Positions 9,986 through 51,338 of a stretch of 64,000 nucleotides of DNA are shown piece by piece. Position 1 is the stretch's first letter. Each line of letters begins with the position of its first letter. The stretch lies in the NCBI GenBank assembly GCA_000091205.1, contig AP006496.2; one strand, given 5' to 3'. Origin of the DNA: Cyanidioschyzon merolae. Its lineage: Eukaryota. Under the pieces are notes generated by a model. That model ran no database searches and had not been told where the DNA came from. It was given only the letters and a program-made list of their open reading frames with translations. The position numbers and the translations under genes are program-made.

Positions 9986-11446
9986 TTGTGGAACAAGCAG
10001 GCACCTGTATCGGAACTTGTCATGTACGTAAACTCCTTATGTGGAAGCGGTTGGCTCCAGAAAGCATCGTTCTTAGGTAATAGGTCTCAAGATGCTGGAG
10101 CGAGCTTCCACCAAGTGGGTGTGTGCCGGGTAGCGCGACACGCCAACTGCCGCGCTTCGTCGCCGCTGCGGCGTTTCCTCGCCATGCATACCCGGGTGCC
10201 GCGCAACGAAAACTTTTCGAAGCTCCAGGGTGGGTACCTGTTTCCACAAATAGCTCAAAGACGACGAGAGTACCTGGAGAAGCACCCAGATGCAGCGCTT
10301 ATCTCGTTAGGTATTGGCGATACGACGCAGCCTATACCTCCGCATATCTGCGCGGGATTGACGCAAGGCGCTAAGAAACTTGCCACGAAAGAAGGCTATA
10401 GCGGTTACGGCGATGGCGAGGGTCTGTATGCGCTCCGAAAAAGCATCGCTTCACGTCTCTATGGCGATCGCATCAGGCCGGAGGAGGTGTTTGTTTCCGA
10501 CGGTGCCAAGTGCGACATCGCCCGTCTCCAGATGGTCTTCGGTAGCGAGGTCACTGTGGCGGTGCAGGACCCCAGTTATCCTGTGTACGTGGACACTGCG
10601 GTTATGACGGGCCAGACTGGTCGTATCAATGCCGATACCCGCCAGTATGCCGGCATCGTGTACATGCGCTGCGACGCTGCCAATGACTTTTTCCCGGACT
10701 TGTCTAAGACACCGCGCACGGATCTCATTTTCTTTTGTTCGCCGAACAATCCAACTGGAGCTGCCGCAACGAGAGAGCAACTGGCAGAGTTGGTGGCCTT
10801 CGCGCGACACAACGGCAGCATCATTGTGTACGATGCAGCATATGCGCCGTTTATTCGTGATCCCGCCGTCCCGCGCTCTATTCTGGAAATCGATGGAGCA
10901 CTTGAATGCGCTATTGAAGTGAACTCATTCAGCAAGTACGCGGGTTTCACGGGTGTACGCCTCGGCTGGACAGTTGTGCCTTCAGCGCTTCGTTTTGCTG
11001 ACGGAACACCAGTCGCGAAGGACTTTGGGCGAGTCATGAACACGGCTTTTAACGGTGCGAGTAATATCGCACAGCAAGGAGGCATGGCGTGCCTAGATGA
11101 TGAAGGTCTCGCGGAGATCGAGCAACTCATATCCTACTACCTGGAGAACACCCGCATCCTGCGAGAGGGTATGGAATCGCTTGGGTTCTCGGTCTACGGC
11201 GGCCGCAATGCACCCTATATTTGGGTCCGCTTTCCCGGTCGCTCGAGCTGGGACGTGTTCACCGAGTTTTTGGAAAAGTGCCAGGTCGTTACGGTCCCTG
11301 GGGCAGGATTTGGCCCAGCAGGCGTCGAGTATGTGCGTCTGTCGGCGTTTGCGCCGCGCGAGGCCTGCCAAGAGGCTGTGCGTCGCATCCAGACAGCGTT
11401 CGGGGGCCGCCCTGCCGACCCGATTGCCGCCTCATCATTCCAGTGA
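9986..11446 (+). CDS. dapL: LL-diaminopimelate aminotransferase (DapL/AGD2-type, plant-chlamydial lysine pathway). An N-terminal extension of roughly 60 aa is a possible transit peptide. The true start may be the internal Met in MHTRVPRNENFSKLQ
   Basis: It is collinear with and highly similar to plant LL-DAP-AT across NFSKLQGGYLFPQIAQRRREYLEKHPDAALISLGIGDTTQPIP...VFVSDGAKCDIARLQMVFGS.VTVAVQDPSYPVYVDTAVMTGQTG...FFCSPNNPTGAAATREQL...NSFSKYAGFTGVRLGWTVVP...AFNGASNIAQQGG...NAPYIWVRFPG.SSWDVF.E.LEK..VVTVPGAGFGP.G.EYVRLSAF. Confidence 0.9.
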   Translation: MWNKQAPVSELVMYVNSLCGSGWLQKASFLGNRSQDAGASFHQVGVCRVARHANCRASSPLRRFLAMHTRVPRNENFSKLQGGYLFPQIAQRRREYLEKHPDAALISLGIGDTTQPIPPHICAGLTQGAKKLATKEGYSGYGDGEGLYALRKSIASRLYGDRIRPEEVFVSDGAKCDIARLQMVFGSEVTVAVQDPSYPVYVDTAVMTGQTGRINADTRQYAGIVYMRCDAANDFFPDLSKTPRTDLIFFCSPNNPTGAAATREQLAELVAFARHNGSIIVYDAAYAPFIRDPAVPRSILEIDGALECAIEVNSFSKYAGFTGVRLGWTVVPSALRFADGTPVAKDFGRVMNTAFNGASNIAQQGGMACLDDEGLAEIEQLISYYLENTRILREGMESLGFSVYGGRNAPYIWVRFPGRSSWDVFTEFLEKCQVVTVPGAGFGPAGVEYVRLSAFAPREACQEAVRRIQTAFGGRPADPIAASSFQ

Positions 11447-21599: not shown

Positions 21600-24361
21600 G
21601 CTTGCGGTAATGGGAAGCGATATGCAAGGAGACCATCGCGACCAGAGCGACGCCCAGACGGTGCCTACCCGCTCCTCGTCCCAGCGTAGACTGCATTGGG
21701 GACGAGTCGCTCAGATCTCACTAAAGCACGTGCAAATGGGGCGAGCATCAAGCACGAGCGTGGGAGACTCGTCTCGCGTGCGGGACCTTCCGCACAGGCG
21801 GCAACCTTTCGACAATACGGGAAGATTTTCCCTCTTTTCATGTTTATCGTTGAGGGGGAATGAAATCGTTACATCTTTGCTATTTAATGATTAGTCTCTT
21901 TTCTTTTTTCCGTATTGTGCGGTCGATACGCGCATCTCCATATCTGGCAGGCATGAGACACGACGTGCATCTCGCTGTTGAGGGGAAACGAGATCCTGAC
22001 CTTTAGTGTGCAGCTCTAACCTACAAGTTGTATTATGGTTGAAGTCATAGCAGAGTATGCTCTCTCGATTCAATCGTGTTTCAGCCCTCAAGCAAGTACA
22101 TTCAAGTGATTTTCCACGATTTATAGCGGACGCATTCGAAATAGGATCTTTTTCAAAAATAAAAAAGAAAAGTAATCGAAATGGAAGTAGAGGATCCCGG
22201 AGGCGCGGTGTCACCTGCTGGTGGAAAAAAACGAAAAACAGAGTCAAACGTAGAGGAACAAGACATGACGAAGAAGCAGAAGAAGAAGGCCCGACGCCAA
22301 AGGCTGCGAGAAAGATGACAATACTACGAGATTGTTGTAAAAGCCTGTCTTCTTGGATAAATCAAGGATCTGTACAAGCAAAAGTTACGAGAGGCCATCA
22401 GAAACTGTGTAGATTCGTACTCCATGAGTGGTATAAAGGCTTCGTCAGGGCTAATGCATTTGGTGAAGGAGCTGTATCGGGACCTGATGGAAATCAAAAG
22501 ACGCGTGGTTCCGGAAGGTTTATTCAACAAGACCTTTTTTCGCCACCTGATTGTTGGCACAGGGGCAGCGTCGAGAAGAGATGAGGGAATGCACGCCCTC
22601 TACGAAAAATTCGCCGAATTCCGCTTCGACGGTACTCGATACATGGGTGATGCGGATATTTACGGATGCGGGGCAATGAAGTACCTCACGAATCTGAAGA
22701 ACAATATGCTCAGTATCCTCGAACGTTTCATGTTACGTTCTATCTTTGCGCTGTACCCGGGCCTGTCTCGCAATGGGATATGGGGCATCATCGAAAGTAT
22801 CACGAACAATCGCCAGCATGAAGATAGGATCCAATCCGTCGACGACAAGACATCACGCAGGAGCAGGAATGAAGCTTCTGTATTGCGTACGGCTATACAG
22901 GAGCATCGTGCGGTACGGGGACTGGCGAATCCTGCAGAAAAGGTAACGGAAATGAAAAAAGATGTTATCACCTCATCCTAAGCTATTTCGTGCTTCTGGA
23001 CCGAGAACTCGAACGCAAGGCAGAGATGGAGCTGGGCGTGAGAAAAAATGAAGAGTCGTTGGAACGGAAGGCTTTCCTGATGTGGAAGCGCTTCAACGTG
23101 GTTCCGTTGTGCAACATCAAGTCACATTTTGTGACTATCGACTCCGGAGTCGTTCATGGCATCGTAAGGGAGATCAGTCCGGAGTTCGATGTAAGCAAGA
23201 TAGAGTTCACCGATGAAACGCGGGAGACGTACTGGAAGAATATCTTCGATTTCAAACGTCTCAAAGTGAGCAAGCAAAAGCAGTTCACTGGGATGATCGA
23301 AACCGATGGAGAAGCCATCTGCGTACATCATCGGCGCTTGAAAGCAGATCGTCCAGTTCCGTCCTCGGCTTCGCCCTCGGCGAAGCATGAAGAAAAGAAG
23401 GTGGCGGATCCTGCGACACAGAAAGTGCAGGACAACGACTTTGTCGTTGGCGCGGCCCCCGGGAACTTGAATATCACAACCATTGAAGCACCCAAGTGTG
23501 CGGAACATGGTGACGACGGCAACTGACGTCAGAAGGACATGCGTCTTGTAAAGTTCTCAAGGGCGAGGTATCGCCTAGAATCGTGAATAATGAATGCAAG
23601 GAAGAAATTTGGGACTTGGAATGCAGGAGTGAAGGAGCGCCTGGAAGCTATGAGCGCGGTGACGAACCGCGGAGCGGGCTTTGACTATTTTCGGGAATTC
23701 ATGGAAGTTCGCATTGCTCATTGGGATGCGCTGTGAGGGGAGTACACCAAGTCACGATTAGCTCGTAAGTGTATGAGACTGTACTGTGGGAAGCAGCTTC
23801 GCGTCGCGAACTTCTTCAATGAATTGAGCGCCCTCAAAGAGGATGAAAGGCGGAGGCTTGTAACAGCATACGGAGCAGGACGCTAGGCTTCCAAAAAAGG
23901 AGCATACCTGTTCCATCGACAAGAGTGTACAAGGAGTGCACACATCGTTTTCTCACGATACGGGTAGATGAGTTCTGAGCGTCGTATACACACTTCGAGC
24001 TGGGGTGTATACTCCAGAGGGTCGAGATGGAAAAGTGCCAGCGGAGCTCTAAGGATGTAAAAAAGTACGGAGCGCTGAAAGAACAGGAAATGGAACGGAG
24101 GGCACAGGTTCGAGAACTCCTTGCACTGGTGGGTACAACCAACGGGGGCAAGAAACGCATGGAGTTCGAGAACGGTGACTTGTTCTCGCCGCAATCAATA
24201 GAACGAGATATGCGGTCCCGGAGAAGAGACCCGACGCGCTAACACGATCTAAAATTCGCAGGGCAGCCGTGCAGTGTCGAGGTGTACAACGAGAAACTGA
24301 AACCAGTAGCAGAGGGCCGGTCCAAAAAGACTGGAGGCGTCTGCACGTCAGTTGGAGATGT
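21600..24361 (+). mobile_element. copy 1 of the 2.3-2.8 kb repeat family (putative Fanzor/TnpB-like element), with a decayed ORF
   Basis: The 5' flank 21600-22056, the 80-bp 5' box, the ORF and the 3' terminus ...ctggaggcgtctgcacgtcagttgga are all shared with the minus-strand copies at 44569-47400 and 51339-54090. Confidence 0.6.
22181..24242 (+). pseudogene. decayed ORF of repeat copy 1, with in-frame TGA and TAA stops at positions that are sense in copy 2, plus frameshifts. The RuvC-I-like box is mutated (AAPGN)
   Basis: MEVEDPGGAVSPAGGKKRKTE... RER* ...LLG*IKD... is one frame carrying two stops. Later it gives [19 protein letters not shown] and TRVYKECTHRFLTIRVDEF*ASYTHFELGC. Confidence 0.55.
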
Positions 24362-30933: not shown

Positions 30934-32129
30934 CACCCATATCAGACGAAACGGGAAGGCCTACAAACAGATGACTCGAGCGTCCGTTCAAAAGTTCGGG
31001 TCTATTGCCAATGCCATCCAACATGGGCCTCCGCGTGCCTTTGAGCTGCCTGCTGTTTTCGCTCTCTCTTACCTTCGGATTTACATGCGCCTGTCGCTCA
31101 TGAACCTCTCCCAGCTGCGATGTCAGCCGTCGACAGATGTCGACGGGAGCGTTCAAGTCCCGACTGCGCCGTTCCCGGCAGTTGTCGACGCATTTCGTGC
31201 ACGAGCGGAAGTTGCAATGCACAACCCGTCTGCCGTTTTTCATCCTCTCTGTACTCGGACGCAGACTGCCCGTCACCACGATGACATTTGATCGCACTCA
31301 GGTGTTTTCGCAGGTTAAGAACACGTGCCTCTCTGAACGCCGCTCTGTGGCGCGTGAACGCTTGCCTCAGTGCTCGGTAGACGCCCTTGGCGGGTGCAGG
31401 AGGCTCCACTCGATGCACTCTTCCATATCCCCGCCCAGTGCCGTACATCTGAATCACGGGCTTGTTCTGGGCGGTGCCTTTGGTATCTACGTTGTTCGCT
31501 GTATGTGCACGCGCACGGTGCTCGCTCCAATAAAGGACTTGCGGGACGCCTTCTTGCCCATATGAAACAAGTGCCAGAGGGAAGTCCGGCCAGACGAAGA
31601 ATTCGCGGCGGTGCGATTCGCCCACGCGCGCGTCTTGCACAGCGCTGACGCGTTCTCCAGTGGAGGCGCTCGCTGCGATAACTAGGGTCCGAGTCCAGTA
31701 CACGGTGCTGTGTAGGCACAGGAGCCGCGATGCTCTGTGAGCGTACTCCCTGAGAGGCAACATGCTGCTGCTGAATGCCGCTGGGTCGATGGCCACGAAC
31801 CAAAGAGCATCTGCCTTCGGAACCAGGTCAATGATCTCCGGCGACAAGCACAGTGAGCTTTAGGCATCGTGCTGTGAGCAAGATGTCGAAAGCAGACTTT
31901 GAGCGTTTCTCGGCGTCCATAAAGCAGCGCAGGCCTCTGCGCCAACGTGTTGCCTTGAAACAGAAATGCAGGATAGCTGACGCATATGTGATTTGAGCAT
32001 TCTGCACATAAGGAAAGGAGAAGTGTGCAGGCGTGAATGTAGGTATTGGATCATGGTATTGGTTTTGCTACAAACCGCTGTCCCATGATGTCGCGAGTCG
32101 CCTAGAGTCCGGTGAGCCACCGAATACCA
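30934..32129. repeat. left arm of a large inverted repeat. It is 1196 bp and about 98-99% identical to the reverse complement of 35270..36464
   Basis: Read directly. Identity begins at cacccatatcagacgaaacggg (the reverse complement of 36443-36464) and ends at ...ggtgagccaccgaatacca (the reverse complement of 35270-35290). All ORFs in one arm reappear on the opposite strand of the other arm. Confidence 0.95.
31098..31847 (-). CDS. hypothetical 249-codon ORF carried by the left inverted-repeat arm. Its function is unknown and the track ORF begins at a TTG
   Basis: It has mixed amino-acid composition and is intact in both arms with only 3-4 aa differences (for example FSSSMLPLREY versus FNSSMSPVREY). 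In both arms a same-frame ORF lies immediately upstream, separated by one stop codon. The true start is unresolved. Confidence 0.35.
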   Translation of the reverse strand: MSPEIIDLVPKADALWFVAIDPAAFSSSMLPLREYAHRASRLLCLHSTVYWTRTLVIAASASTGERVSAVQDARVGESHRREFFVWPDFPLALVSYGQEGVPQVLYWSEHRARAHTANNVDTKGTAQNKPVIQMYGTGRGYGRVHRVEPPAPAKGVYRALRQAFTRHRAAFREARVLNLRKHLSAIKCHRGDGQSASEYREDEKRQTGCALQLPLVHEMRRQLPGTAQSGLERSRRHLSTADIAAGRGS

Positions 32130-33029
32130 ATTTCAAACAAAAAAAAACACGCGAAGAAGCTACTCCTAAAACACGACCGAGACTCCCGGAATTCTGCATG
32201 CATCTGCAGGCCCTCCATACTGCACTTTAAATACCAATGCGGTGCACCCAAGAAATGTTAAGAAAAAATCGAAAGGCAGGAACAGATCGAGCAGATCAGT
32301 GTTCTATCCATATCTGAAACGGGTGTCGCGCATACGCTGCGTGCGATGGGCTCGGCACCGGCGAAGCGTCTCGTCGCCCGTCTCAGACAACAGCTTTTGA
32401 GACAACATTGTACCAGGGCGCACCGCCAGCTGCTAGAACGCATCCGCATCGATCATCGCCTGCGCCGCGCTCCGCGGGCGCTTCACACCGGGCAGCGTCG
32501 CAGGCCGTCGACACCACCTCTTTTCTGAGACAAAAAGGACACAGATCCATCGACCGGCGATCGCCGCATGGCTTCGCCAGCCGGCATGCCTGCATGGTGG
32601 CGCTCAGCGCGTTTTCCGCAGCCGCACCCGGACGCTGCGCCGTTCAGATTGAGACGATTTGAATCCGGGTCTGCGCGCGCGGCAGTTCGTGCGCGCGCAC
32701 CCTCCTCAGAGCGCGCAAACGTGTTGTTTGGTGTCTTTGACCCAGAGGCTAACCTAACGAGGTTTCCGCAAGGCGTCTACGTACGTACTAGATAGAAACT
32801 TTCAAGGACGACTTTACCGCCTTGATATCTTAGTGGATTCAGCGCATAGAACAAGTGTTTCTCTCTCGAACCGAGGAGTCGCGCCACCGAAACCTGACGA
32901 GTCCGTTATCCGGTTCGCGCCGCCACGTTTTACCCGCTGCTTAGCTCAGGTCGGCAAAACACCAGGGAACTGAAGTGAAGTTCATAGTTTTCACTGTTTC
33001 GTGAGTATTTTAATTGGAAAGGTCATCAA

Positions 33030-33311
33030 ATGGTTGGTAATAATACGGAAGCAGGAATGGCGAAGTTTCTGGAGTTAAAGGCAGCTTTCGAGGACGTGTA
33101 TGAGGACACGACAAAGTTTTTCGAGAAAGGGAACAAGGCCGCAGCCGTTCGTGCTCGTAAGAAGCTTTTAAGGTTGCGAGAAATTGCACAAGAAATGCGT
33201 GTTCTCATTCAGCAGACGAAGGCGCAGCTAGAGCAGGAGCACAAAACCGCTCGAACCAGCGGCGGGGGTGGCGGTTTGGGCGCAGACAACCAAGTGTCCA
33301 TGGGAGAGTGA
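33030..33311 (+). CDS. small basic coiled-coil protein (93 aa) with a KGNKAAAVRARKKLL core resembling the N-terminal domain of bacterial histone-H1-like Hc1 (chlamydial HctA). It lies in the spacer of the inverted repeat
   Basis: MAKFLELKAAFEDVYEDTTKFFEKGNKAAAVRARKKLLRLREIAQEMRVLIQQTKAQLEQ, compared with Chlamydia Hc1 ...LLKAEKGNKAAAQRVRTESIKLEKIAKVYRKE (recalled from memory). It ends in a Gly-rich tail. Confidence 0.35.
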   Translation: MVGNNTEAGMAKFLELKAAFEDVYEDTTKFFEKGNKAAAVRARKKLLRLREIAQEMRVLIQQTKAQLEQEHKTARTSGGGGGLGADNQVSMGE

Positions 33312-35269
33312 GCTTTCCTTCACCGGAGCGCTGCTAAGCCACGATGGCTTTTTCGTGCTGTATTTGTTGAATCGGTAAGCGTTCAGGCTCTTGAGGTCCG
33401 CGCCCTTGAACTATTTGCTCCTGTATGACCGCAACTCGTACTGGTTTTGTTTTCTGGACATCGTCCTGAGCCTTCCCACGGTTCGTCGCCTGTTTCGGCC
33501 GCCACAGCTGATACTTTGCAGGCCACGTGCAGGGTCTCCAGAGGCAGGCCGAAGTTTTCTCCGTACGCGGAGGGTTCGTGGCGGATCGATGAGTCCGTCA
33601 GGTTTCTCTAATTCCGAAACTATGCATAGAATCGACGTTCTCTGTGATGAAAGATAGTTTGAGCCAAAGATATTGCAGCAACGAATTGTGAGCCGCTTGC
33701 ATCGGACTCAACGTGACTAGCAGCCGTACCAGAGGAAGTAAAGATCCCGAATGGTTCCTAAATAGTTCTCTCGTGTCATGGTTGGAACTCCCGGTCAAAT
33801 GAATGGTCAGGGGATTTTCTGGAATGTGTTCCACGACGAATACTGGGGCTCGTTTTGATTGTATTCCATTTTGCGGCCTGAGGGTTTCCGAATGAAGGGT
33901 TTCCAATTCTGATTAATTTATGCTGCGAAGATCGGACACTCTTGCTGATAGAAGCTGCTGACGCCCGTAAGGAATGCCCCACACGAGAGCAAACTTGCCA
34001 ACGGCTCTTCGATACCAGCACGCTCTTCGTTAGAGCGAAGCCGTTCACCCTAGAGCCACAGGTGCGTCGAGAGGACTTAGAGTTCCCGGTTAGTTTTGGA
34101 CGTGCCTGTTACTCGTTGTTTTGGCCGCCAGTCGTGTCGGATAAGGCGACTCGACCTGACACGGAGCGGGCTCTTGACATATAAAAGAAGAGGCGGCGCG
34201 GCAAGGGATCCAACGGGAAGCAGGGAGGGAACGTGTCCGTCTGTTCCATCACGGACCTGATCAGTGATCCTGCAGCTAAGTCTTTCGATTGGGGAGGGTC
34301 TGCACCAATGTATACCTTTGAACAGAGGGATCCAGAGCGATCGAGGCCGTTCGCCTCGCACAAGGCACGAGGCGTCGTTTACAGAGCGACGCCCCTTTCA
34401 TGAGGCGTACCCGGCGTGCTCGCTGCTGCCTTACCGAGCGGAACGTTATCCCTGGCGTCTGATGAGAACACTTTCCCGCTATATTCTACAGAACCGCTTT
34501 CGGCTCCTGGGCTCAAGACAGCTCTTGTCCTCTACATCCAGCGCGTTGCAGCGCATGAATCTACAGTGAGTCTGCTGCATATCCTGCACGTTTGCGAACC
34601 AAGCTGAGCACAGCTCGTGCACTCCTATGCAAAAATGGCTACTCTTTTGATCTTCAGCATGTTGCAGCATTCGAATCGGAACAGCGACCCGTTACCGAAC
34701 ATGTCTCCAGTTTTTGGACGTCGCTGCGGAAAGGAAATGCACCAGCCGATGATGCAGAGTGTACAGATCCGTATCATCCTGATGGTGACGCTGCTGGCTT
34801 GGATTCGTTCAAACTATCGGGACACTGGGTCGGAGCCTCGCTATCACTTTAAATGCAATCCGCGTGAGCCTCGAGTGTACCTGTTGATGGAGGAATTTCG
34901 AATCTTTGGAAACTGGAGCGCTTGGTGCCCACGGCGCTGCATTTACCCCACTCGTCCCGTGGAGAGAAGCTCGCTCTGACTTCTATCCTGGTTGTCCAAC
35001 TGGTGCATTCTATAGCCGGATCGGGCCATGGACGAACGATTGGGCATTCAGCGACCGCCTGAGACACGTCGCATCTACGTACTGTACTTGCGTGCGATGA
35101 AAATGGAACACTGATCTGCTCGCTCTGTTCCTGTCTTTCTATTTTTGCTATACTTTTTTAGACTTGCAACCTCGGCATTTGAAGTGCAGCAATACGCGCA
35201 GACGAAGTCAGACGTCGTTTCAGTATCGTCGGCAGTATTTTTGGAATGCCTCCCTCGGCACTCTGGCGC

Positions 35270-36464
35270 TGGTATTCGGTGGCTCACCGGACTCTAGGCG
35301 ACTCGCGACATCATGGGACAGCGGTTTGTAGCAAAACCAATACCATGATCCAATACCTACATTCACGCCTGCACACTTCTCCTTTCCTTATGTGCAGAAT
35401 GCTCAAATCACATATGCGTCAGCTATCCTGCATTTCTGTTTCAAGGCAACACGTTGGCGCAGAGGCCTGCGCTGCTTTATGGACGCCGAGAAACGCTCAA
35501 AGTCTGCTTTCGACATCTTGCTCACAGCACGATGCCTAAAGCTCACTGTGCTTGTCACCTGAGATCATTGACCTGGTTCCGAAGGCAGATGCTCTTTGGT
35601 TCGTGGCCATCGACCCAGCGGCATTCAACAGCAGCATGTCGCCTGTCAGGGAGTACGCTCACAGAGCATCGCGGCTCCTGTGCCTACACAGCACCGTGTA
35701 CTGGACTCGGACCCTAGTTATCGCAGCGAGCGCCTCCACTGGAGAACGCGTCAGCGCTGTGCAAGACGCGCGCGTGGGCGAATCGCACCGCCGCGAATTC
35801 TTCGTCTGGCCGGACTTCCCTCTGGCACTTGTTTCATATGGGCAAGAAGGCGTCCCGCAAGTCCTTTATTGGAGCGAGCACCGTGCGCGTGCACATACAG
35901 CGAACAACGTAGATACCAAAGGCACCGCCCAGAACAAGCCCGTGATTCAGATGTACGGCACTGGGCGGGGATATGGAAGAGTGCATCGAGTGGAGCCTCC
36001 TGCACCCGCCAAGGGCGTCTACCGAGCACTGAGGCAAGCGTTCACGCGCCACAGAGCGGCGTTCAGAGAGGCACGTGTTCTTAACCTGCGAAAACACCTG
36101 AGTGCGATCAAATGTCATCGTGGTGACGGGCAGTCTGCGTCCGAGTACAGAGAGGATGAAAAACGGCAGACGGGTTGTGCATTGCAACTTCCGCTCGTGC
36201 ACGAAATGCGTCGACAACTGCCGGGAACGGCGCAGTCGGGACTTGAACGCTCCCGTCGACATCTGTCGACGGCTGACATCGCAGCTGGGAGAGGTTCATG
36301 AGCGACAGGCGCATGTAAATCCGAAGGTAAGAGAGAGCGAAAACAGCAGGCAGCTCAAAGGCACGCGGAGGCCCATGTTGGAAGGCATTGGCAATAGACC
36401 CGAACTTTTGAACGGACGCTCGAGTCATCTGTTTGTAGGCCTTCCCGTTTCGTCTGATATGGGT
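35270..36464. repeat. right arm of the large inverted repeat (1195 bp)
   Basis: See the left arm at 30934..32129. The spacer between the arms runs 32130..35269 (3140 bp). Confidence 0.95.
35552..36301 (+). CDS. second copy of the 249-codon hypothetical ORF, in the right inverted-repeat arm
   Basis: It is 98-99% identical to 31098..31847(-). Confidence 0.35.
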   Translation: MSPEIIDLVPKADALWFVAIDPAAFNSSMSPVREYAHRASRLLCLHSTVYWTRTLVIAASASTGERVSAVQDARVGESHRREFFVWPDFPLALVSYGQEGVPQVLYWSEHRARAHTANNVDTKGTAQNKPVIQMYGTGRGYGRVHRVEPPAPAKGVYRALRQAFTRHRAAFREARVLNLRKHLSAIKCHRGDGQSASEYREDEKRQTGCALQLPLVHEMRRQLPGTAQSGLERSRRHLSTADIAAGRGS

Positions 36465-36727
36465 GTAGGTATGCAACGCATCCGCGTGCTTGCGAACGTG
36501 CGTCGATTATGTACATAACTGGACACTACTGGCCACTTGCTCTGATCGTCGCCGCGGGGAGCTGGCGCACGGCCTCGGGGCCTGCCCTCGGCACCGGCCC
36601 CGCAGCCGATGCCGGTACGCGCCGTGGGCCGTGCCAATCCAGAATCGTATCCACGACACTAGTGCTTACGATTCGGTGTGAAGCACAGTTTTCGCAAGCC
36701 ACAGTTGTTCACTTTTGCGCTATCAAC

Positions 36728-39319: not shown

Positions 39320-41686
39320 CTATCGCAGCCCCGTGCTCGCGTCATCCTGCACGGCCGCGTATGGTGAACGCGGCACTGGCACGAATACTTTTTCGAGAAA
39401 GCGGCGAAATCGCCGCGCATACGAGCTCGGTTCGATAACACTAATGCTATCGTGAAGACAGAGTAGGTGCGCTTTCCCGAAATGTTCGAGTTTCTTTTCT
39501 GCATTATATCGATCGAGGACGTCGATAATACCGAAAAAGAGCCGCGCCTCCTCCCCGTTCTCCAGCAAACCGACCCAACTGTTTGCATGTCGGGCGTCCC
39601 GTTCGCGCAGACGGCGCCATGATTCTGCTGAAACCGGCAAGTTTGCCGATGTGTCCACGTACTGCAAGCCGAGCAGAAAAGAGTAATCCATGATATGAAC
39701 GCTTTCCAGGAACAGGCAATCCATATCGATTTGGTTGAGCATTCTGCGTCTCAGTCGTCGGTCAATAGCGATAGGACCCACACCGTCTCGAAACAGGTCT
39801 AGGTCCTTTCGGGGTTGTCTTGGATCCAACTCCTGGGACGCTCTGCAGAGAAGGCTTGGTCGAAACCGCTGCTGCGGGGCCGTCTGCTGCTCGTCGTCGT
39901 TTGAGAGAACATGCGACGCCGGAGTCCGTGAAAACCTGCCATGCGTACTGCCTTTGAGATCATAGCGCAAATGAATTGGTGTTCGGGTTGGCAGGAAATT
40001 GCTCATGACGACCATACGGATGCGACGCCGCCGCAATCCAAGACGGTGGGTCGTTACACGATGCAGGCCGAAAAAGCGCGTGATGAGAGATTCCGGATTC
40101 TTCATCATGTGAAAGTAGTACTGGGGAAGAATGCTGAGCAGGACACTGGCTTCCTGCTTGGACAGTGTCTTCAGAATGAAACGGTCATCGCTGCTGTAGT
40201 AGAAGAGCGAGCCGCTCTTTCCGGCAGTGGTCGCCTCCCTGAGGGCCTCCTCGCCGCACAGCGAGCGCAGATACGATGTAGGACTAATCCCATAACGCTG
40301 CCTCAATTGGCGGAATACCATCGGGGCATAGTCTTTGAAAGTGAAGCACTTCTCGATGGGGGGCGTGTCTGATGAGCCCACTGCCGGAAAGCGGATCGTG
40401 TTGCTGGTCCGAAAATCAGCCATGCAGAGGTTCCGCGGCGCCAACGCGTTCTGTCGCTCCACCGTGTAGCGTATTCCAGCTTTGATCTGCATCATCAAAT
40501 GATAAGAGCGATGACCCTTGTAGATGACCTCGCCGTGGCGGATTTGGAAATTGCCGCGCCTGGTGAATGGATGCAGTAGGTTGTAGGTGCCAATGACACC
40601 GGCTGAATGGCACGATCCAGTTGCTGACGCATGGCCAACCGGTTGGAGCGCGCCCCGTGCAGACCCCGGAAGCGGCGACTTGGGCGGCATCGCCGGCAGC
40701 GCATCAATGTACAGGTGCACGGCGGGTTCCACAACGAGCGGCGGCAACGGTGGCGGCAGCACCGTATGGGATCCGCGTCTCACGTCGCGTCGGCGGTGTG
40801 TACTTCGCGCATCGGCATGCACAGCGGCATAGGCGCCATGCTCGAAACTGCCGTCCCCGAGGCCTGCAGCACCTACAATGGTGGCCGGCCTGGATTCGGA
40901 AAAAGGCACCGAGGCGAATCCGTTCACAGAAAGTTGCTGCCCACTGCTAGCACTCGAAGATGATTGTGGTTCAATGGATGAGCTATGCGCGGTACCCATA
41001 GCGTGCTCGGCGCGCATGACGCGCGAGGTAGCGCTTGTCGAGACGCTCAGGGGCGCTACTTCCAGGGTACCCGATTGCTGTGAATACGTGCTATTGGTCG
41101 TTCCGGAGTGTACAGAGTTATTTTCGGCGTTCGTCAACAAGACTAGCCTTGACTTTGTTGGTTCGGCGTTCTCTTCGGTAGCTGCAACAGTGACCTGAAG
41201 CGGTGGCGGTCGTCGAAGTCGTCTACCAAGCGACATTCGCACTTCAGTTCTGCTTTCCGCACGTTTGCGTGCGTCCGAGTCGTCTGTTGCGTCGTCGAGT
41301 GTTGTGCCAGCGCTACCGCTACCACTGCGGTCGCTGCCGCCCTGTTCCATTGTTCCCTGCTTTTCGGGTGTGTCCGAGGCAGGCGCTGCGCAAGCGCTGG
41401 ACACCAAAAGAGAACCAGCAACTGCAGGCGCAACGGCCGCTTTCTGTAAGCTTTCTGCTGCCTCAACGGTAGCTAGATAGCTTCCCGCATCATTAGACAA
41501 CGAGCTGTTGTTTTTGGGGTCGGTGAAATGGACCTCCTCAGTGTTGTTGGCGTCCTCAGCGGCAGCGCCCAGCTCGGTCGTCAGTGTTCGCGCCATAGAC
41601 ACATGCTGCTCCTTCTCTTTGCCAGATGTTCGGGACAATCTAGAGGTTTCAGTATGAGTATCCTCCAGAGAAAGAGCGACGCCCAT
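39320..41686 (-). CDS. PIP5K: phosphatidylinositol-4-phosphate 5-kinase (PIPK family), 788 aa, single exon, with a long Ser/Ala-rich N-terminal region
   Basis: The PIPK catalytic core runs RGNFQIRHGEVIYKGHRSYHLMMQIKAGIRY... GKSGSLFYYSSDDRFILKTLSKQE... LPQYYFHMMKNPESLITRFFGLHRV... RMVVMSNFLP... DLKGSTHGR... MDYSFLLGLQYVD... GIIDVLDRYNAEKKLEHFGKA. Confidence 0.85.
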   Translation of the reverse strand: MGVALSLEDTHTETSRLSRTSGKEKEQHVSMARTLTTELGAAAEDANNTEEVHFTDPKNNSSLSNDAGSYLATVEAAESLQKAAVAPAVAGSLLVSSACAAPASDTPEKQGTMEQGGSDRSGSGSAGTTLDDATDDSDARKRAESRTEVRMSLGRRLRRPPPLQVTVAATEENAEPTKSRLVLLTNAENNSVHSGTTNSTYSQQSGTLEVAPLSVSTSATSRVMRAEHAMGTAHSSSIEPQSSSSASSGQQLSVNGFASVPFSESRPATIVGAAGLGDGSFEHGAYAAVHADARSTHRRRDVRRGSHTVLPPPLPPLVVEPAVHLYIDALPAMPPKSPLPGSARGALQPVGHASATGSCHSAGVIGTYNLLHPFTRRGNFQIRHGEVIYKGHRSYHLMMQIKAGIRYTVERQNALAPRNLCMADFRTSNTIRFPAVGSSDTPPIEKCFTFKDYAPMVFRQLRQRYGISPTSYLRSLCGEEALREATTAGKSGSLFYYSSDDRFILKTLSKQEASVLLSILPQYYFHMMKNPESLITRFFGLHRVTTHRLGLRRRRIRMVVMSNFLPTRTPIHLRYDLKGSTHGRFSRTPASHVLSNDDEQQTAPQQRFRPSLLCRASQELDPRQPRKDLDLFRDGVGPIAIDRRLRRRMLNQIDMDCLFLESVHIMDYSFLLGLQYVDTSANLPVSAESWRRLRERDARHANSWVGLLENGEEARLFFGIIDVLDRYNAEKKLEHFGKAHLLCLHDSISVIEPSSYARRFRRFLEKVFVPVPRSPYAAVQDDASTGLR

Positions 41687-44498: not shown

Positions 44499-44568
44499 AC
44501 CAACAACGCCGTTCTACGTCGACCGACGTCAGTGTACAGTAGTGGCGAGAAACTCGCCCTGGCCAAGA

Positions 44569-47400
44569 AGTCTGCAACTGACGTGCAGACGCCTCCCTGT
44601 CTTTCTGGGCCGGCCACCGACTACATCTTACATATTCTTCTCATATAGTTCCACTTTGAGAGGTTGTCCAACAAAGTTCGTTCTTGGCGTCTCTGGAGGT
44701 CTCTTCTCCAGCACCGCACATCTCCATATATTTAATGGCGGCATTAAAATCTCGGTTCACGACTTCCATCCGTTTCTTGCCATTGATTGTACTCACTAGT
44801 TTAAGTAGCCCTCACACTTTTGCCCTCCTTTCCATTTGCTCTTCCGTCAGCGGTCCGTACTTTGCTATTTCCTCAGGACTCCGCTGCCACTTTTCCATCT
44901 CCACTCTCTGAAGTGTACTACCCAGGTCATGGTGTGTATACGACGTTCGAAACTCATCTACAGGTATCATAACAAAATGCCGTGCAAACTCCTTGTACGC
45001 CCTCGTCGTTGGAGCTGGCGTGGTCCCATTTTTCGACGCCGAACGCCCTGCCCCATAAGCCGCAACCAGCCTTTGACTTTCATCCTCCTTCAAGTCGCTC
45101 AAATGATTGGAAAAGTTGGCAAATGCCCGCTGCTTCCCACAATACAAATTCATACACAAAACGGGTCCACTGGAGCTTGGTATATTCATTCCACAGCGCA
45201 TCCCAATGAGCAATGCGAACTTCCATGAATTTCCGAAAAGCTTGAAAGTCCGCTCTGCGGCTCGTCACCTCGCCCATAGCTTCCAGGTGATCCATCATTC
45301 CTGCATTCCATGCAGCAATTTTCTTCCTCGCATTCATTATACCGACTTCTCGATAGAATCTTGCTCTTGAGAACCTCAACAGACGCATGGCTTTCTGACG
45401 TAATTTACCATCAGCACCATCTTCCACACGCTTGGGTACCGCAATGGTGATGACATTCGTATTCCCAGGGTCCGCGTCAACGACAGAGTCGCTCTCATGC
45501 ACTTTCTGTTCCGAAAGACCCGCCTCCTTCTCATCTTCTTGCTTCGCCACGGGCGAAGCCGAGGTCGGAAATGGCCGATCTGTCTTCAAACGCCGATAGT
45601 GTACACACATGGCTACTCCATCAGTTTCGCTCATCCCAGTGAATACATTTTGCTTGCTCACTTTGAGACGTTTGAAATCAAAGATATTCTTCCAGCACGT
45701 CTCCCGGTTCTCGCCGGTGAACTCTGTCATCCTTACATTGAACTCCGGACAGGTTTCTCTCATTATGCTGTACAGGACTCTGGAGTCGATTGGCATAAAA
45801 TGCGACTTGATCTCGCACCTCGGAACGACGTTGAAGCACTTCCCCATCCGGGCAGCTATCCGTTCCAACAACGCTTCATTTTCCCCACTCAGCTGCCTTT
45901 CGGCCTTGCGTTCGAGTTCCCGGTCCAAAAACACAAAATAGCGCAGGAAGAACGGATAACATTTTTCTTATCTTTTTTCGTAGCTGATACCTTTTCCGCT
46001 GTATTCGCCAGCCCCAAGACTGCACGGCGCTCTTGAACAGCGGCACAGATCACAGAAGCTTCATTCTTTCTCCTGCGTAATGTCCTCTTGTCGAAGAATT
46101 CGATCTCCCGTTCATGGAAGCGATCGTTCTTGATGCCATTGATGATGGCCCATATCCCTTTGCGAGATAGGCCCGGGCAGAGTGCAATCACGGCGCTTAT
46201 CATGAAACGTTCGAGATTCAAAGTCAAATGTTCGTTCAGGTTCTTGACGCACTTGATCGCCCCCTATGCGCAAATATCCGTGTTATACTTCTAGCGAGTA
46301 CCGTTGAGGCGGTAGTTGGGGTATTTTTCGTGGAGGGCATGCGCTCGATCGTTTCTCCTCGACGTTTCCCCAGTGCCGAACATCAAGTGACGAATAAAGG
46401 ACTTGTTGAAAAACTCTCCCAGAACGCCGACTATTTTGACGTCCTTCATATCGCGATACATCTTCCTCACCAAATGCATCAGTGCTAAAGAAGCGATGTG
46501 AACACTCATGGGGTAAGACTCGACACGGTTTCTCATCGCTTCTCGCAACTTTTGCTGGCAGGGATCCTTGATATGGCCGAGAAGACAGGATTTCACCACC
46601 ATAACGTCGTATGATCGTCTTTCTTGCAACCTGTGACGTAGGGCCTCCTGCCATGGCTTCTCCGCCTTGTCTCGTTCCTCTTTGCTTGGCTCTGTTTTTC
46701 GTTTCTTTCCGCCAGCCAGCGTTACTGGCGCTTCAGGATCCTCCATTTCCATTTCCATAACTTATCTTCTCTTTATTTTTGAAGACGAACGCACATGGAA
46801 GGGTTTTGCTGTAAACCGCGAAAAATCAATTGAATTAACTTACTTGAGGGTTTAAACACGACTGAATTGAAAGACTATAGTTTGCTCTGACTTTTACGCA
46901 TATACAACTGGGCCGTTAGAACAACAAGTCAACGAGTGATCATGATAGCGTCGCTCTTCTCAACGGTAACATGCGCGTCGTGCTCGTGACTGCCAGATCA
47001 CGAGGTGCGCTGACCGACCGCACTATATACCACGATAAACAGAGACCAGCTACTAACTAGCACCGAGATAACAATTTCTTTGCCCTCTACGATAAACGCT
47101 GAACGGAGAAAAGGTTTCCATCTATCGAAAGTTTACCTTCAAGGCAGAGGGTCTTGGGATCAGGGTGTCTGCCGGGCTTGCGCTCCGTGCAACTCTGCAG
47201 TGGCGAGTGGCGTGACGCGACCTGAGCTGCTCGTCCCCAACGTAGTTTATTCTTGTAGAACGGGCAGATAGGCTGCGTCTGGGCGTCACACTGGTCACGC
47301 TGGACTCCTTGTAAATCGCTTCCCGCTGCCGCAGGCAGTACGCCTGTCTGCGCAACTTGCTGGTTCCCAGAGTGCTTATGAATCGCGACCCCGTGTCGAG
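44569..47400 (-). mobile_element. copy 2 of the repeat family (putative Fanzor/TnpB-like element). It is the most intact copy and retains the D-A-D-P-G-N box
   Basis: The 3' terminus (on + coordinates 44569-44800) tctgcaactgacgtgcagacgcctccctgtctttct...ttccactttgagaggttgtccaacaaa matches 51339-51470 and the reverse complement of 24250-24361. The 5' box lies at 46780-46880. The 5' flank to about 47400 matches 53600-54090. Confidence 0.6.
44812..46758 (-). pseudogene. ORF of repeat copy 2, split into four frame-shifted pieces (46291..46758, 45889..46227, 45080..45934, 44812..45213). It is a putative TnpB/Fanzor-like RuvC nuclease with a degenerate zinc finger
   Basis: The N-terminal basic stretch GGKKRKTEPSKEERDK looks like an [25 protein letters not shown] is RuvC-I-like (compare TnpB vGIDlGiknlatlsdG). 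RLLRFSRARFYREVGIMNARKKIAAWNAGMMDHLEAM resembles the TnpB helical bundle (l.r..rkk.ks.nrkKar.kiaklh.kianqRkD). TTRAYKEFARHFVMIPVDEFRTSYTHHDLG aligns with TnpB l.YKAe..G..V..VdP.YTSQ.Cs.CG, but both Cys pairs are lost. Confidence 0.45.
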
Positions 47401-47843: not shown

Positions 47844-50800
47844 ATGTTGAATTGCAGTAGAGAGCTTGGAAGAGCGACTTTAGCGACTGTTTGGCAGAAG
47901 GGGCAAGTTTCGGGCTTGCGGGCGTGGTACGCACAGGTTACAGCTTGTGATGCTGCCGGGGGTTACCGCCTAGGAGGCAAACGTTTGATCACGCAGCTCA
48001 TCTCACCTGCCGATAGTGTGGGATCACGGAAAATGGGGGTACCGACGGCGGTTTCGGTGCAGAGACTGTCCTCGTCATGCGCTGGAGAAACGGGCACTGC
48101 TGCGAGCGAACGCAGCGCGAGCGTGCCGCGCTTCGATCCGTCTGTGCACATCGTGACGCGTCGGACTCGCGTCCGAGAGCAGCTGGACGCAATTTTCAAA
48201 CCACGAGCTGTGGCAGTGATTGGTGCGACGGAAAAGCCCGGCTCCGTCGGTCGCAATATTTTCCAGAACCTGCTCTCGCCTTTCGGCGGTGCCGTGTACC
48301 CTGTGAATCCCAAACGAAGCCACATTTTGGGTATACGCGCATATCCGAATGTGTCGTCAATTCCGGAGCCAATAGATCTCGCTGTTATCACGACACCCGC
48401 GAGAACAGTGCCGTCGATTATGCACGAACTCGCTGACAACCGCGTTCCAGGCTGTGTGATTATTTCGGCGGGTTTCGCCGAGGCGCAGGTTGGTGGCGAG
48501 GGTCGAAAGCTTCTCGATGAGACACTCGCAGAGGCTCGGCGTGGAGGCACGCGTATCATCGGACCAAACTGTTTGGGTATCCTCAATATCTCGACAGGGA
48601 TGAATGCGTCGTTTGGTGCACGGGCAGAGTACGTTAAAGGCGATGTGGCTCTGCTGAGTCAGAGCGGAGCTTTGGTCTGCTCGCTTCTCGACTGGGCACT
48701 GAAGGAACGATTTGGTTTCAGCAAAGTTGCATCGTTAGGAACGATGTGCGACGTCGACTGGGCGGATATGATTCGGTATATCGGTGAGGATACGCATTCG
48801 AGGTCGATTGTTGCCTACGTTGAATCGATTGGGAATGTTCGCGCCTTCATCTCGGCTGCTCGAGAGGTTGCAACCACGAAGCCAATTGTGGTGATTAAAG
48901 CTGGACGCACGCCCGCTGCGGCTGCGGCAGCAGCGTCACACACCGGCAACCTTACTGGGTCGGACGAAGTGATTGGGGAGGTCTTGCGCCGTGCCGGAGT
49001 GCTGCGCGTGGATCGAATCGATGATCTCTTCCTCACTGCAAGAGTGCTGGCGCAGCAACCTCGACCTCGCGGAAAAAATCTTACGATCATAACGAATGCG
49101 GGAGGGCCGGGGATCCTAGCGGCAGATGAGTTGGTTTCGGGTGGTGGTGCGCTCACCGAGCTCTCATCAGAAACCATGGATGCACTGGACAAGGTGCTCC
49201 CGGCAGCCTGGTCGCATGCGAACCCGGTTGATATCATTGGAGATGCGACACCAGAAACGTATGCGAAGGCGCTTGAGATCTGCTCCAAGGATGTGAACAC
49301 GGACGGCACGCTTGTGATTCTGACGCCGCAGGTCATGACCGATGCTACTGCAACCGCAGATATTCTGGTACGCGCGGCAGCCACAGCGCGTGCCGAGGAC
49401 AAACCAGTGCTTGCGAGCTGGATGGGGGGCATTGATGTTTTAGCGGGCCAGGAAATTCTGAAACGCAACGAGATCCCCAACTTCGCGTTCGCGGACGTGG
49501 CTGTTCGCATTTGGAACTATCTTCATCGTTACAATTCGATTCTCGAGAGCCTCTACGAGGTACCAGAGGGCCCCTCAACCCGTGTTGCAGGGATGCGCCA
49601 GATTAAGCGTTCTGCAGAAGAAATGCTCGAGCAAGCACGCCAAGCAGGGCGAATCGTGCTGAACGAGTACGAGAGCAAGAGACTTCTCAGCATGTACGAA
49701 ATTCCAGTTTTGGAGGCGAAGCTAGCGCATTCGGAGGATGAAGCCGTTGAGATCGCGAAACGTATTGGTTTTCCGGTCGTAGCCAAGCTGTTGAGCCACA
49801 CGATCACACACAAGACCGACGTTGGTGGCGTGAAGGTGAATCTCCACACACCGGATCAAGTTGTCGAAGCCTTCCATTCGATTCGCGAGAGCGTCACCAA
49901 GCTCCGCGGCGCAGAACACTTCCAGGGCGTTATTCTGGAACGAATGATCGATCTTCGCCCCGGAGGATACGAGGTCTTGTTGGGGAGTACACTCGACCCG
50001 CAAGCAGGACCTATTGTGGCGTTTGGCACCGGTGGAACCCTTGTGGAAGTCTACAGGGACGTCAGTCTCGGCATACCGCCGCTGAACTCTGCGCTCGCGC
50101 GTCAAATGATGGAACGAACTCGCATTTACAATGCACTGAAGGGCGTGCGGGGCCATGACCCGGCTGATCTTGAGCAGCTGCAAACAGTGGTATCTCGCTT
50201 CTCTCGAATGGTGTGCGAACAACGCCTTATCAAAGAGTGTGATATCAATCCGCTGTTTGTGACTCCACGCGGTATTGTGGCAATTGATGCCCGTGTCGTC
50301 TTGCATGACCCGCACGTGTCACTGGATACTGTACCGCAGCCGGCCATCCGCCCGTACCCCTCGGAGTATGTCAGCCCCTGGAGCGGCGACAGTATGGGGA
50401 ACCTCCCGGTGGTGATTCGGCCCATCCATCCCTCGGATACACCAAAGCTTTTAGAGTTCTGGGACGCTCTGTCAACAACAGGCACTGGTTATTTAGTGCC
50501 ACAAGTCGTTGCCGCAGCGCCCACTCGTGACGTGAACCTACGGGATCGATGGCTGCGCAATCGTTTGCTTCGCATAGCCTTTTGCGACTTTAACTCGGAA
50601 ATGGTGATCATCGCCGAGGCCCGTGATGCCGAAGGGAGCGCTGCAATCCACGCTCTAGCCCAGCTGCGTTTGGAGCCGGAGCCGGACCCCGGTCATTTTG
50701 CGATTAACGTCTTGGACACGGACCGTGGGCACGGCCTCGGGACAGAGATGCTCCGCCGACTCATGGATATTGCGCGTCGCGAGGGCTTGACTCGAATATG

Positions 50801-50924
50801 GAGCGAGATCGCACCGGAGAATCGGGCTATGCAGCGCATTTGTGAGAAACTCGGTTTCCAGCTGGGACCATTACCAGACCAGGAGAATGGCAATATTCTC
50901 GCCGAGTACGTTTTGAGCGCGTGA
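47844..50924 (+). CDS. Pat-like fusion of an NDP-forming acyl-CoA synthetase (CoA-binding, CoA-ligase and ATP-grasp domains) with a C-terminal GNAT acetyltransferase, the architecture of bacterial protein lysine acetyltransferase Pat/YfiQ. The first 100 aa or so may be a leader or not translated
   Basis: IFKPRAVAVIGATEKPGSVGRNIFQNLL.PFGG.VYPVNPK is the CoA-binding Rossmann domain of succinyl-CoA-synthetase type. Next come ...GPNCLGI.N...G.NASF and the ATP-grasp block YESKRLLSMYEIPV...FPVVAKL.S..I.HKTDVGGVKVNL. The C-terminal GNAT has RGHGLGTEMLRRLMDIARREGLTRIWSEIAPENRAMQRICEKLGF. Confidence 0.85.
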   Translation: MLNCSRELGRATLATVWQKGQVSGLRAWYAQVTACDAAGGYRLGGKRLITQLISPADSVGSRKMGVPTAVSVQRLSSSCAGETGTAASERSASVPRFDPSVHIVTRRTRVREQLDAIFKPRAVAVIGATEKPGSVGRNIFQNLLSPFGGAVYPVNPKRSHILGIRAYPNVSSIPEPIDLAVITTPARTVPSIMHELADNRVPGCVIISAGFAEAQVGGEGRKLLDETLAEARRGGTRIIGPNCLGILNISTGMNASFGARAEYVKGDVALLSQSGALVCSLLDWALKERFGFSKVASLGTMCDVDWADMIRYIGEDTHSRSIVAYVESIGNVRAFISAAREVATTKPIVVIKAGRTPAAAAAAASHTGNLTGSDEVIGEVLRRAGVLRVDRIDDLFLTARVLAQQPRPRGKNLTIITNAGGPGILAADELVSGGGALTELSSETMDALDKVLPAAWSHANPVDIIGDATPETYAKALEICSKDVNTDGTLVILTPQVMTDATATADILVRAAATARAEDKPVLASWMGGIDVLAGQEILKRNEIPNFAFADVAVRIWNYLHRYNSILESLYEVPEGPSTRVAGMRQIKRSAEEMLEQARQAGRIVLNEYESKRLLSMYEIPVLEAKLAHSEDEAVEIAKRIGFPVVAKLLSHTITHKTDVGGVKVNLHTPDQVVEAFHSIRESVTKLRGAEHFQGVILERMIDLRPGGYEVLLGSTLDPQAGPIVAFGTGGTLVEVYRDVSLGIPPLNSALARQMMERTRIYNALKGVRGHDPADLEQLQTVVSRFSRMVCEQRLIKECDINPLFVTPRGIVAIDARVVLHDPHVSLDTVPQPAIRPYPSEYVSPWSGDSMGNLPVVIRPIHPSDTPKLLEFWDALSTTGTGYLVPQVVAAAPTRDVNLRDRWLRNRLLRIAFCDFNSEMVIIAEARDAEGSAAIHALAQLRLEPEPDPGHFAINVLDTDRGHGLGTEMLRRLMDIARREGLTRIWSEIAPENRAMQRICEKLGFQLGPLPDQENGNILAEYVLSA

Positions 50925-51338
50925 AGGTTTTGTCGGAGGTGCTTGCTCGTGTCCAGCTTTTTACTGCGAAGCGTGTGCGGAGTATCGGGCTCGAGCGACT
51001 GCCTGAAGGGGGGAGGGGGGTGACGAAGCCGAACGGGGAAAGCGTATAACGTTTGATGCAGTTTTATAGGAAGGACGGTTTAAAGCATGTTTTGCTTCGC
51101 GACGCTTTTACAATACGACTTGATTGCGCGCTTCGAATAGCCTGCCGCGTACTGGAAAGATCGCTGTGGTACGCGTAAATCCATTACAAACTTTTGAGCT
51201 GGTGCTGCCTGAGTATTCAGATTATGCTGGGGAAAGATCTGTCAATGGTCTTGCCTCATCGCTTTTTATCCAACTTCGGTGCGACCTTCGCAGCGGTGTA
51301 CAGTGGTAGCGGTGAACGCGTCCTAGACATGACGTCTC

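Follow-up and report, generated by a model that had tools for sequence, protein, structure and literature searches.

How does a domain known from a chlamydial histone-like protein come to be encoded in the nuclear genome of a red alga, and what would it do there? The question is raised by a small gene at positions 33,030 to 33,311 of a 64,000-nt stretch of Cyanidioschyzon merolae DNA (contig AP006496.2), hereafter the window, whose 93-residue product carries the Hc1 domain (PF07432). An initial annotation, made from the letters of the window, read the product as a homologue of Hc1/HctA derived from Chlamydia, one of the chlamydia-like genes of the plastid lineages, with a plausible role in the nucleoid or in DNA compaction. 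The analysis leads to a different answer. The best overall explanation, which we hold with somewhat better than even confidence, is that the gene encodes an Hc1 hairpin protein of the red lineage, that it falls in a branch of the family otherwise found in bacteria of the Fibrobacteres-Chlorobi-Bacteroidetes (FCB) group, and that the protein would be nucleocytoplasmic and self-associating.

The gene, its parts and the stop codon that bounds it are located as follows.

33030..33311, plus strand: complete coding sequence (CDS) of the 93-residue Hc1-domain protein, stop included; from the open reading frame (ORF) list, 100% database identity and conservation
33030..33056, plus strand: N-terminal extension MVGNNTEAG, found in copy 1 of the Cyanidiales only; kept as M[VT]GNN[TA]EAG in Cyanidiococcus and Cyanidium
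33057..33221, plus strand: Hc1 domain (PF07432), residues 10-64; from the Pfam match and the AlphaFold2 helices
33126..33158, plus strand: core motif KGNKAAAVRAR, K33-R43, where the hairpin turns and helix 2 begins
33222..33308, plus strand: C-terminal tail, residues 65-93, Gly-rich and slightly acidic; from the charge count and low predicted local distance difference test (pLDDT) scores
32985..32987, plus strand: in-frame TAG, 45 nt upstream of the ATG, read from the sequence

The ORF runs from an ATG to a TGA, and its product, MVGNNTEAGMAKFLELKAAFEDVYEDTTKFFEKGNKAAAVRARKKLLRLREIAQEMRVLIQQTKAQLEQEHKTARTSGGGGGLGADNQVSMGE, is 100% identical to a database protein of C. merolae 10D (BAM81398.1, XP_005537434.1, UniProt M1VJD1), encoded on nuclear chromosome 14. 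The BAM81398.1 record is titled 'hypothetical protein, conserved', the UniRef name for M1VJD1 is 'Histone H1', and the PF07432 assignment is already precomputed in public databases. The initial annotation quoted a peptide beginning at Met10, nine residues after the true start of the ORF at MVGNNTEAG; the ORF itself and its KGNKAAAVRAR core (K33-R43, nt 33126-33158) were found as it had described them. It had also named the Pfam Hc1 profile as the check on its reading, and the profile does match the protein, at E=2.8e-15 (56.3 bits, gathering cut-off 23.5), with residues 10-64 aligned on profile positions 1-55 of 57. Together with the database identity, this match bears out a nuclear-encoded protein of the Hc1 family in a plastid-bearing eukaryote. 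The description of a small basic protein holds for size (93 residues) and overstates the charge: the isoelectric point is 9.05, but the net charge of the whole protein is only about +1.6 to +2, with +4.5 on the domain and -2 on the tail, where 2 Lys/Arg stand against 4 Asp/Glu.

Conservation of the gene in related genomes, on which the initial annotation had made its reading depend, is clear. Orthologues occur in Cyanidiococcus yangmingshanensis (92 residues) and Cyanidium caldarium (111 residues), and both keep the nine-residue N-terminal extension; position 10 is Ile in Cyanidium, so that translation must begin at Met1. The gene order DSPc phosphatase-EnY2-TPT-Hc1-SHMT-PIP5K is the same in C. 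merolae and Cyanidiococcus, and TPT and EnY2 also flank the Hc1 gene at the Cyanidium locus. A comparison of C. merolae with Cyanidiococcus shows differences at 41 of about 52 synonymous sites and at 2 of about 182 non-synonymous sites (pN 0.011, pS 0.79, the synonymous sites being saturated). Further, in the 6.5-kb interval from TPT to SHMT, DNA similarity to Cyanidiococcus or Cyanidium is confined to the CDS; the conservation begins at 33028, two bases ahead of the ATG, and the DNA comparison with these two genera detects no conserved upstream exon in the interval. Contigs that encode exactly this protein were genomic. These comparisons indicate that the locus is a real nuclear gene with a single exon, subject to strong purifying selection, and that it encodes a 10-kDa protein consisting of one Hc1 domain and a short tail. 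The identity, family placement and conservation of the protein, taken jointly, are assigned with high confidence.

What the protein shares with chlamydial Hc1 is only a part of the latter. The PF07432 model spans residues 4-58 of chlamydial Hc1, and the rest of that protein is a Lys/Ala-rich region resembling histone H1. According to Pedersen et al. (1996, J Bacteriol 178:994), as cited in PMC3469542, the N-terminal part of Hc1 may serve as a site for dimerisation, and nucleic-acid binding maps to the C-terminal region. The two proteins have homologous N-terminal domains, including the KGNKAAAxRxR core, but the chlamydial tail of 29-68 Lys/Ala-rich residues is missing from the red algal protein, which has only the N-terminal domain of Hc1, without the H1-like part. 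The six chlamydial tails that were compared hold 15-28 Lys/Arg and zero Asp/Glu, for a net charge of +15 to +28, whereas red algal tails carry from -9 to +3; moreover, the whole protein is net acidic in Pyropia, Porphyra, Agarophyton-2 and Madagascaria-2.

The predicted fold of the Hc1 domain in the C. merolae protein is a hairpin of two antiparallel helices. From an alignment of 28 sequences, AlphaFold2 places a helix at residues 2-33, a turn at G34-N35 and a second helix at residues 36-77 (mean pLDDT 85.9), with a pLDDT of 96-98 over residues 11-60 and of 51-58 in the tail, where confidence is low past residue 77. The conserved core of the family, K-G-N-K-A-A-x-x-R-x-R, lies between the two helices and is present as K33-R43; N35, R41 and R43 are invariant in the family alignments A2 and A3. 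Helix 2 is conserved and strongly basic across all branches of the family, with nine Lys/Arg and two Asp/Glu over residues 36-64 of the C. merolae protein (net about +7). A sequence search of the PDB with the family profile gave nothing below E=1, and so no solved structure of the family; Foldseek searches of the PDB and BFVD returned generic helical hairpins only, none at E<=0.001, the nearest PDB folds (not significant) being designed homo-oligomeric hairpins and the dimerisation domains of ING3 and ING4. A PHROGs search gave no match.

The domain is widespread in the red lineage. HMMER, run exhaustively against 1.84 billion representative proteins, yielded 412 proteins at E<=1e-3, and the top matches look eukaryotic, with low-complexity flanks. 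Taxa were assigned for named matches only, among the 120 that were listed of 1739 matches in a profile search. The red algal matches are Cyanidioschyzon, Cyanidiococcus, Cyanidium and Galdieria partita (Cyanidiophyceae), Porphyridium and Erythrolobus (Porphyridiophyceae), Rhodosorus and Bangiopsis (Stylonematophyceae), Madagascaria (Compsopogonophyceae), Pyropia and Porphyra (Bangiophyceae) and Gracilariopsis and Agarophyton (Florideophyceae), so that orthologues or paralogues are present in every red algal class sampled. The contig of the best match outside the Cyanidiales is eukaryotic and has a TPT gene 3 kb from the match. Beyond red algae, the nucleomorphs of cryptophytes supply CPARA_2gp302 of Cryptomonas paramecium, CcurKRNrm2_p149 of Cryptomonas curvata and CMESO_300 of Chroomonas mesostigmatica; the matches also include an nr protein of Cryptomonas sp. 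named 'histone H1', and another homologue adjoins Tic110 on a nucleomorph-like contig, an extremely gene-dense one with housekeeping genes about 50 nt apart. The named eukaryotic matches are all rhodophytes or cryptophytes, and no green plant or glaucophyte is among the named matches listed. Given homologues in all red algal classes sampled and an Hc1 domain already recorded in public databases, the protein is not the unusual addition to plastid-bearing eukaryotes for which it was first taken.

The nucleomorph ORFs carry the same domain at their very N-terminus, 44-52% identical to that of C. merolae, lack a targeting peptide and are of red algal descent; they differ in being encoded in a relict nucleus and in their long tails, which are AT-biased, rich in Asn and Lys and 75-104 residues in length. 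No linker histone genes were reported by a survey of the histones of nucleomorphs (PMC4822330), and these ORFs, which are not linker histones, accordingly went unnoticed. Presence in all red algal classes sampled, combined with the descent of nucleomorphs from a red algal nucleus, suggests that the red algal ancestor already possessed the gene. The retention of a 55-residue bacterial-type domain in all sampled red algal classes and in nucleomorphs is unusually strong conservation for so small (10 kDa) and uncharacterised a protein. Among the Cyanidiales there is also a second, divergent Hc1-domain paralogue of 76-91 residues (P0028, P0057, P0220; loci L089-L092), whose tail ends in ...YRYRF or ...YRYPF in two of three cases; its locus is an unrelated one, with an Mlh1-like gene on one side and a gene for a 2-hydroxyacid dehydrogenase on the other.

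Where in the cell would the protein act? The in-frame TAG at 32985-32987 and the start of the domain at residue 10 leave no room for a transit peptide, which removes the basis for a role in the plastid nucleoid, and the N-terminal extension is too short, and carries an acidic residue, to be a targeting peptide. Nucleomorph and most red algal homologues begin at the first residue of the domain. Judged by the domain start, the upstream stop and the conserved Met1, no transit peptide fits, although no targeting predictor was run. The lack of a targeting peptide, together with nucleomorph versions that start with the domain, points to the nucleus or cytosol and not to the plastid; the C. merolae protein is thus probably nucleocytoplasmic.

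The architecture also bears on the mechanism. Since only the dimerisation part of Hc1 is kept and the polycationic nucleic-acid-binding tail is absent, the protein is most likely a self-associating alpha-hairpin, and the missing tail argues against DNA condensation in the manner of H1. A role in DNA compaction, read across from Hc1, is not supported, on the same ground. The hairpin would self-associate through the part mapped in Hc1 as the dimerisation site, and its conserved basic helix 2 may dock onto a chromatin or ribonucleoprotein partner; DNA condensation by charge neutralisation would not be expected, nor the condensation of the nucleoid that chlamydial Hc1 brings about when expressed in E. 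coli. This mechanism of self-association and docking is put forward tentatively, and two observations speak against it. In a heptad register assigned by eye, R43, R50, R57 and K64 of helix 2 face D26, D22 and E15 of helix 1, so the conserved Arg/Lys of helix 2 may form intramolecular salt bridges and not a ligand surface. Further, several red algal homologues are net acidic, which argues against a general affinity for nucleic acids.

A purely protein-binding role is a serious rival to docking. The protein would then be an adaptor or chaperone without nucleic-acid binding, an oligomeric hairpin whose acidic, Gly- or Gln-rich tail engages basic partners, for instance histones or ribosomal proteins. 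The neutral to acidic tails of the red algal proteins, some of them net acidic as a whole, agree with such a role, as do the closest folds, which are dimerisation hairpins, and the mapping of Hc1 nucleic-acid binding to the C-terminal region (Pedersen et al. 1996, as cited in PMC3469542). On the other hand, the tails vary in sequence and length, to the point that the Galdieria protein (59 residues) is nearly tailless, so that the conserved function must reside in the hairpin; moreover, helix 2 of that hairpin is conserved and strongly basic in all branches. We consider the adaptor role rather unlikely.

A broader proposal is that the gene was acquired from bacteria before the radiation of the Rhodophyta, was indispensable enough to be kept even in the nucleomorph genomes of cryptophytes, which are of roughly half a megabase and have no known linker histone, and encodes an ancient, lineage-wide nuclear factor acting on chromatin or ribonucleoproteins. 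As a whole, this proposal is improbable. A speculative extension concerns methylerythritol cyclodiphosphate (MEcPP), a metabolite of the plastid methylerythritol phosphate pathway. Chlamydial Hc1 comes off DNA in response to MEcPP, which also binds H-NS at its dimerisation site (PMC11582573), and by analogy it might also modulate the C. merolae protein. If true, such modulation would link the plastid directly to the nucleus by a metabolite. Because C. merolae allows gene targeting by homologous recombination, localisation and knock-out experiments are directly feasible.

The origin of the domain was approached through its bacterial relatives. A scan of prokaryotes, with one genome per species and the pattern F[FY][EDS]KGN, confirmed at least 533 loci, and FCB bacteria account for nearly all of the best 80, with identities of about 36-60%. 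They include Balneolales (Fodinibius, Gracilimonas), Rhodothermales (Salinibacter, Salinivenus), Chitinophagales, Cytophagales, Ignavibacteria and Chlorobi. The FCB-group loci encode stand-alone proteins of 57-63 residues, annotated 'histone H1' in, for example, Fodinibius, Gracilimonas and Salinibacter. The C. merolae protein forms an 'F[FY]xKGN' branch with the stand-alone proteins of Bacteroidota, Balneolales, Rhodothermales, Ignavibacteria and Chlorobi. These proteins have the same domain at full length (40-56% identical, 50-62 bits) and share with the C. merolae protein the signature KF[FY]xKGNKAAGxRxRK...AQExR..IQ..K; most lack a polycationic tail, and in the distance tree they are inseparable from the red algal proteins. 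They differ in being bacterial and in consisting of the domain only, to which C. merolae adds its 9-residue N-terminus and 29-residue Gly-rich tail. Genes for an amino-acid kinase, a cytidine deaminase and a bPH_2 membrane protein recur in the neighbourhoods of the 80 bacterial loci; they reflect genome relatedness and give no functional hint.

The derivation from Chlamydia was suggested by the KGNKAAAxRxR core, by the match to Pfam Hc1 and by the presence of a plant/chlamydial-type LL-diaminopimelate (LL-DAP) aminotransferase in the same window. The motif had been given correctly: it is shared with chlamydial Hc1, and a C. trachomatis-like Hc1 (P0246), 99% identical to the Chlamydia trachomatis sequence, contains AEKGNKAAAQRVRTESIKLEK. 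The pattern of the scan is blind to the chlamydial type, and chlamydial sequences were therefore compared directly by blastp and in a tree, which offsets the bias. With the C. merolae protein as query, blastp gave FCB proteins 50-62 bits over the whole domain, and the Hc1 proteins of Chlamydia, Neochlamydia, Simkania, Rhabdochlamydiaceae and others 24-33 bits over partial alignments. In a neighbour-joining tree (63 columns, 200 bootstraps), the chlamydial sequences form a clade split from the eukaryotic and FCB sequences in 200 of 200 bootstraps, and the mean distance of the eukaryotic sequences is 0.70 to FCB and 1.42 to chlamydial ones. Similarly, the NCBIfam HctA equivalog model (NF051889) gives the C. 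merolae protein 18.5 bits against a cut-off of 100, and Fodinibius and Galdieria about 19-21 bits, as compared with 150.3 bits for the chlamydial control P0246. Even the motif points away from Chlamydia, in that its third Ala (position 39) is peculiar to the Cyanidiales, while the other red algae share with FCB bacteria a Gly at this position, in KGNKAAG[VT]RARK. The absence of a Lys/Ala-rich tail and of a transit peptide counts further against a chlamydial nucleoid protein, as does the restriction of the named eukaryotic matches listed to red algae and cryptophytes, with none from a green plant or glaucophyte.

The aminotransferase was confirmed in the window (9986-11446; TIGR03542, 538 bits against a cut-off of 364.7). 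It lies 21.5 kb from the Hc1 gene, with GTPase, ABC transporter and other genes between, is unrelated to that gene and says nothing on its origin. By scan, blastp and tree alike, the closest prokaryotic relatives are not Chlamydiota, and the gene does not belong with the chlamydia-derived genes of Archaeplastida; it adds nothing to the chlamydial contribution in plastid-bearing eukaryotes. These sequence comparisons largely refute derivation from Chlamydia, which we regard as very unlikely. The PF07432 model itself scores the stand-alone proteins of FCB bacteria and Galdieria at 83-84 bits and chlamydial Hc1 at only 64.9 bits, and the family is now dominated by non-chlamydial members.

As to the origin, the donor was most likely an FCB-type bacterium, and a single ancient bacterial transfer would be the simplest history, for which a domain of 55 residues is too short to decide. 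Two facts temper this origin. The F[FY][EDS]KGN pattern is unable to retrieve chlamydial-type sequences, so the dominance of FCB bacteria in the scan is partly built in, and the monophyly of the eukaryotic sequences has 4% bootstrap on the 63 columns, which leaves the single transfer, its donor and its direction as matters that we infer from the relationships and do not read directly from the tree.

The databases offer another reading, that of a true eukaryotic linker histone. UniRef uses 'Histone H1' for M1VJD1 and for several red algal homologues, and nr holds a 'histone H1 [Cryptomonas sp.]'. This database name is the only likeness, and the winged-helix domain and Lys-rich tails of linker histones are both missing from the C. 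merolae protein, which gives no match to the Pfam Linker_histone winged helix even at E<=10. Moreover, C. merolae has a separate, single H1 gene in a histone cluster on chromosome 14, between the BAT and ASM genes (PMC1955436), whereas the Hc1 gene stands between TPT and SHMT. A linker histone is thus highly improbable. The name 'Histone H1' appears to have been propagated from the title of the Pfam family; as the Pfam model does not take in the H1-like part of Hc1, the name lands on proteins without any H1-like region. The present analysis corrects this spreading annotation of eukaryotic proteins that share only the non-H1-like part of Hc1. In the literature searched, no paper on the C. merolae protein or on Hc1-domain proteins of red algae or nucleomorphs was found, and no functional characterisation of the stand-alone FCB proteins. 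The family assignment is already known from the databases; what is worth keeping is the conservation of a bacterial-type hairpin protein across red algae and nucleomorphs.

Lastly, there is next to no probability that the ORF arose by chance, is contamination from bacteria or stems from a very recent, functionless transfer, for although many ORFs of similar length arise by chance in this GC-rich interval, the Pfam homology (E=2.8e-15), synteny across three genera and strong purifying selection rule this out, and the gene sits on a telomere-to-telomere chromosome.

The gene lies in the spacer of a large inverted repeat, a palindrome already noted in the initial annotation and confirmed here.

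30934..32129, strand not applicable: left arm of the inverted repeat, 1196 nt, flanking the Hc1 gene; 99% complementarity
35270..36465, strand not applicable: right arm, 1196 nt, ending 44 nt before the SHMT start codon

The arms are 99% identical and enclose a 3140-nt spacer that holds the Hc1 gene. The repeat is not present at the Cyanidiococcus or Cyanidium loci, and is therefore a recent feature that has no connection with the gene's conservation. An inner, degenerate extension occupies 32253-32307 and 35103-35157. In other assemblies with about 99.5%-identical DNA, the 3.1-kb spacer occurs in both orientations relative to its flanks: locus L099 has the reference order, L096 has the Hc1-distal arm joined to the TPT-side flank, and L095 has the SHMT side joined to the spacer inside the 55-nt inner repeat. 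The two orientations could reflect flip-flop inversion or a mis-join across the repeat. The arms also contain 249-residue ORFs, which were treated as chance ORFs, having no Pfam match and no homologue in related loci. A further locus, L093 (JGI Ga0506614_00412, 7322 nt), forms a perfect palindrome in which the Hc1 gene occurs twice, head to head, centred about 340 nt upstream of the ATG, at about 32689, by a short GC-rich palindrome at 32669-32720; it is probably a fold-back artefact of assembly or library.

Elsewhere in the window, the PIP5K gene of the conserved order, at 39320-41686, corresponds to CMN333C of PMC11808204. Dispersed repeats of about 0.9-1.4 kb lie at 22955-23900, 44532-45969 and 51296-52600, in direct and inverted orientation, with 74-81% identity; the ORFs within them have no Pfam match, and the family may be one of the repetitive elements that have been described in this alga. 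A tandem repeat at 9437-9838, with a 123-nt period and three overlapping 156-nt copies that are 97% identical, is found just upstream of the ORF for the LL-DAP aminotransferase (9986-11446). A 748-residue ORF at 58430-60676 (plus strand) contains Kelch repeats and, at its C-terminus, a Hint module (PF01079, 106 bits), by its profile match an autoprocessing domain of the Hedgehog/intein type in a red alga. Finally, a 1026-residue ORF at 47844-50924 (plus strand) joins CoA-binding, succinyl-CoA-ligase-like and ATP-grasp_5 domains to a C-terminal GNAT acetyltransferase, an architecture that resembles that of bacterial Pat-type protein acetyltransferases.

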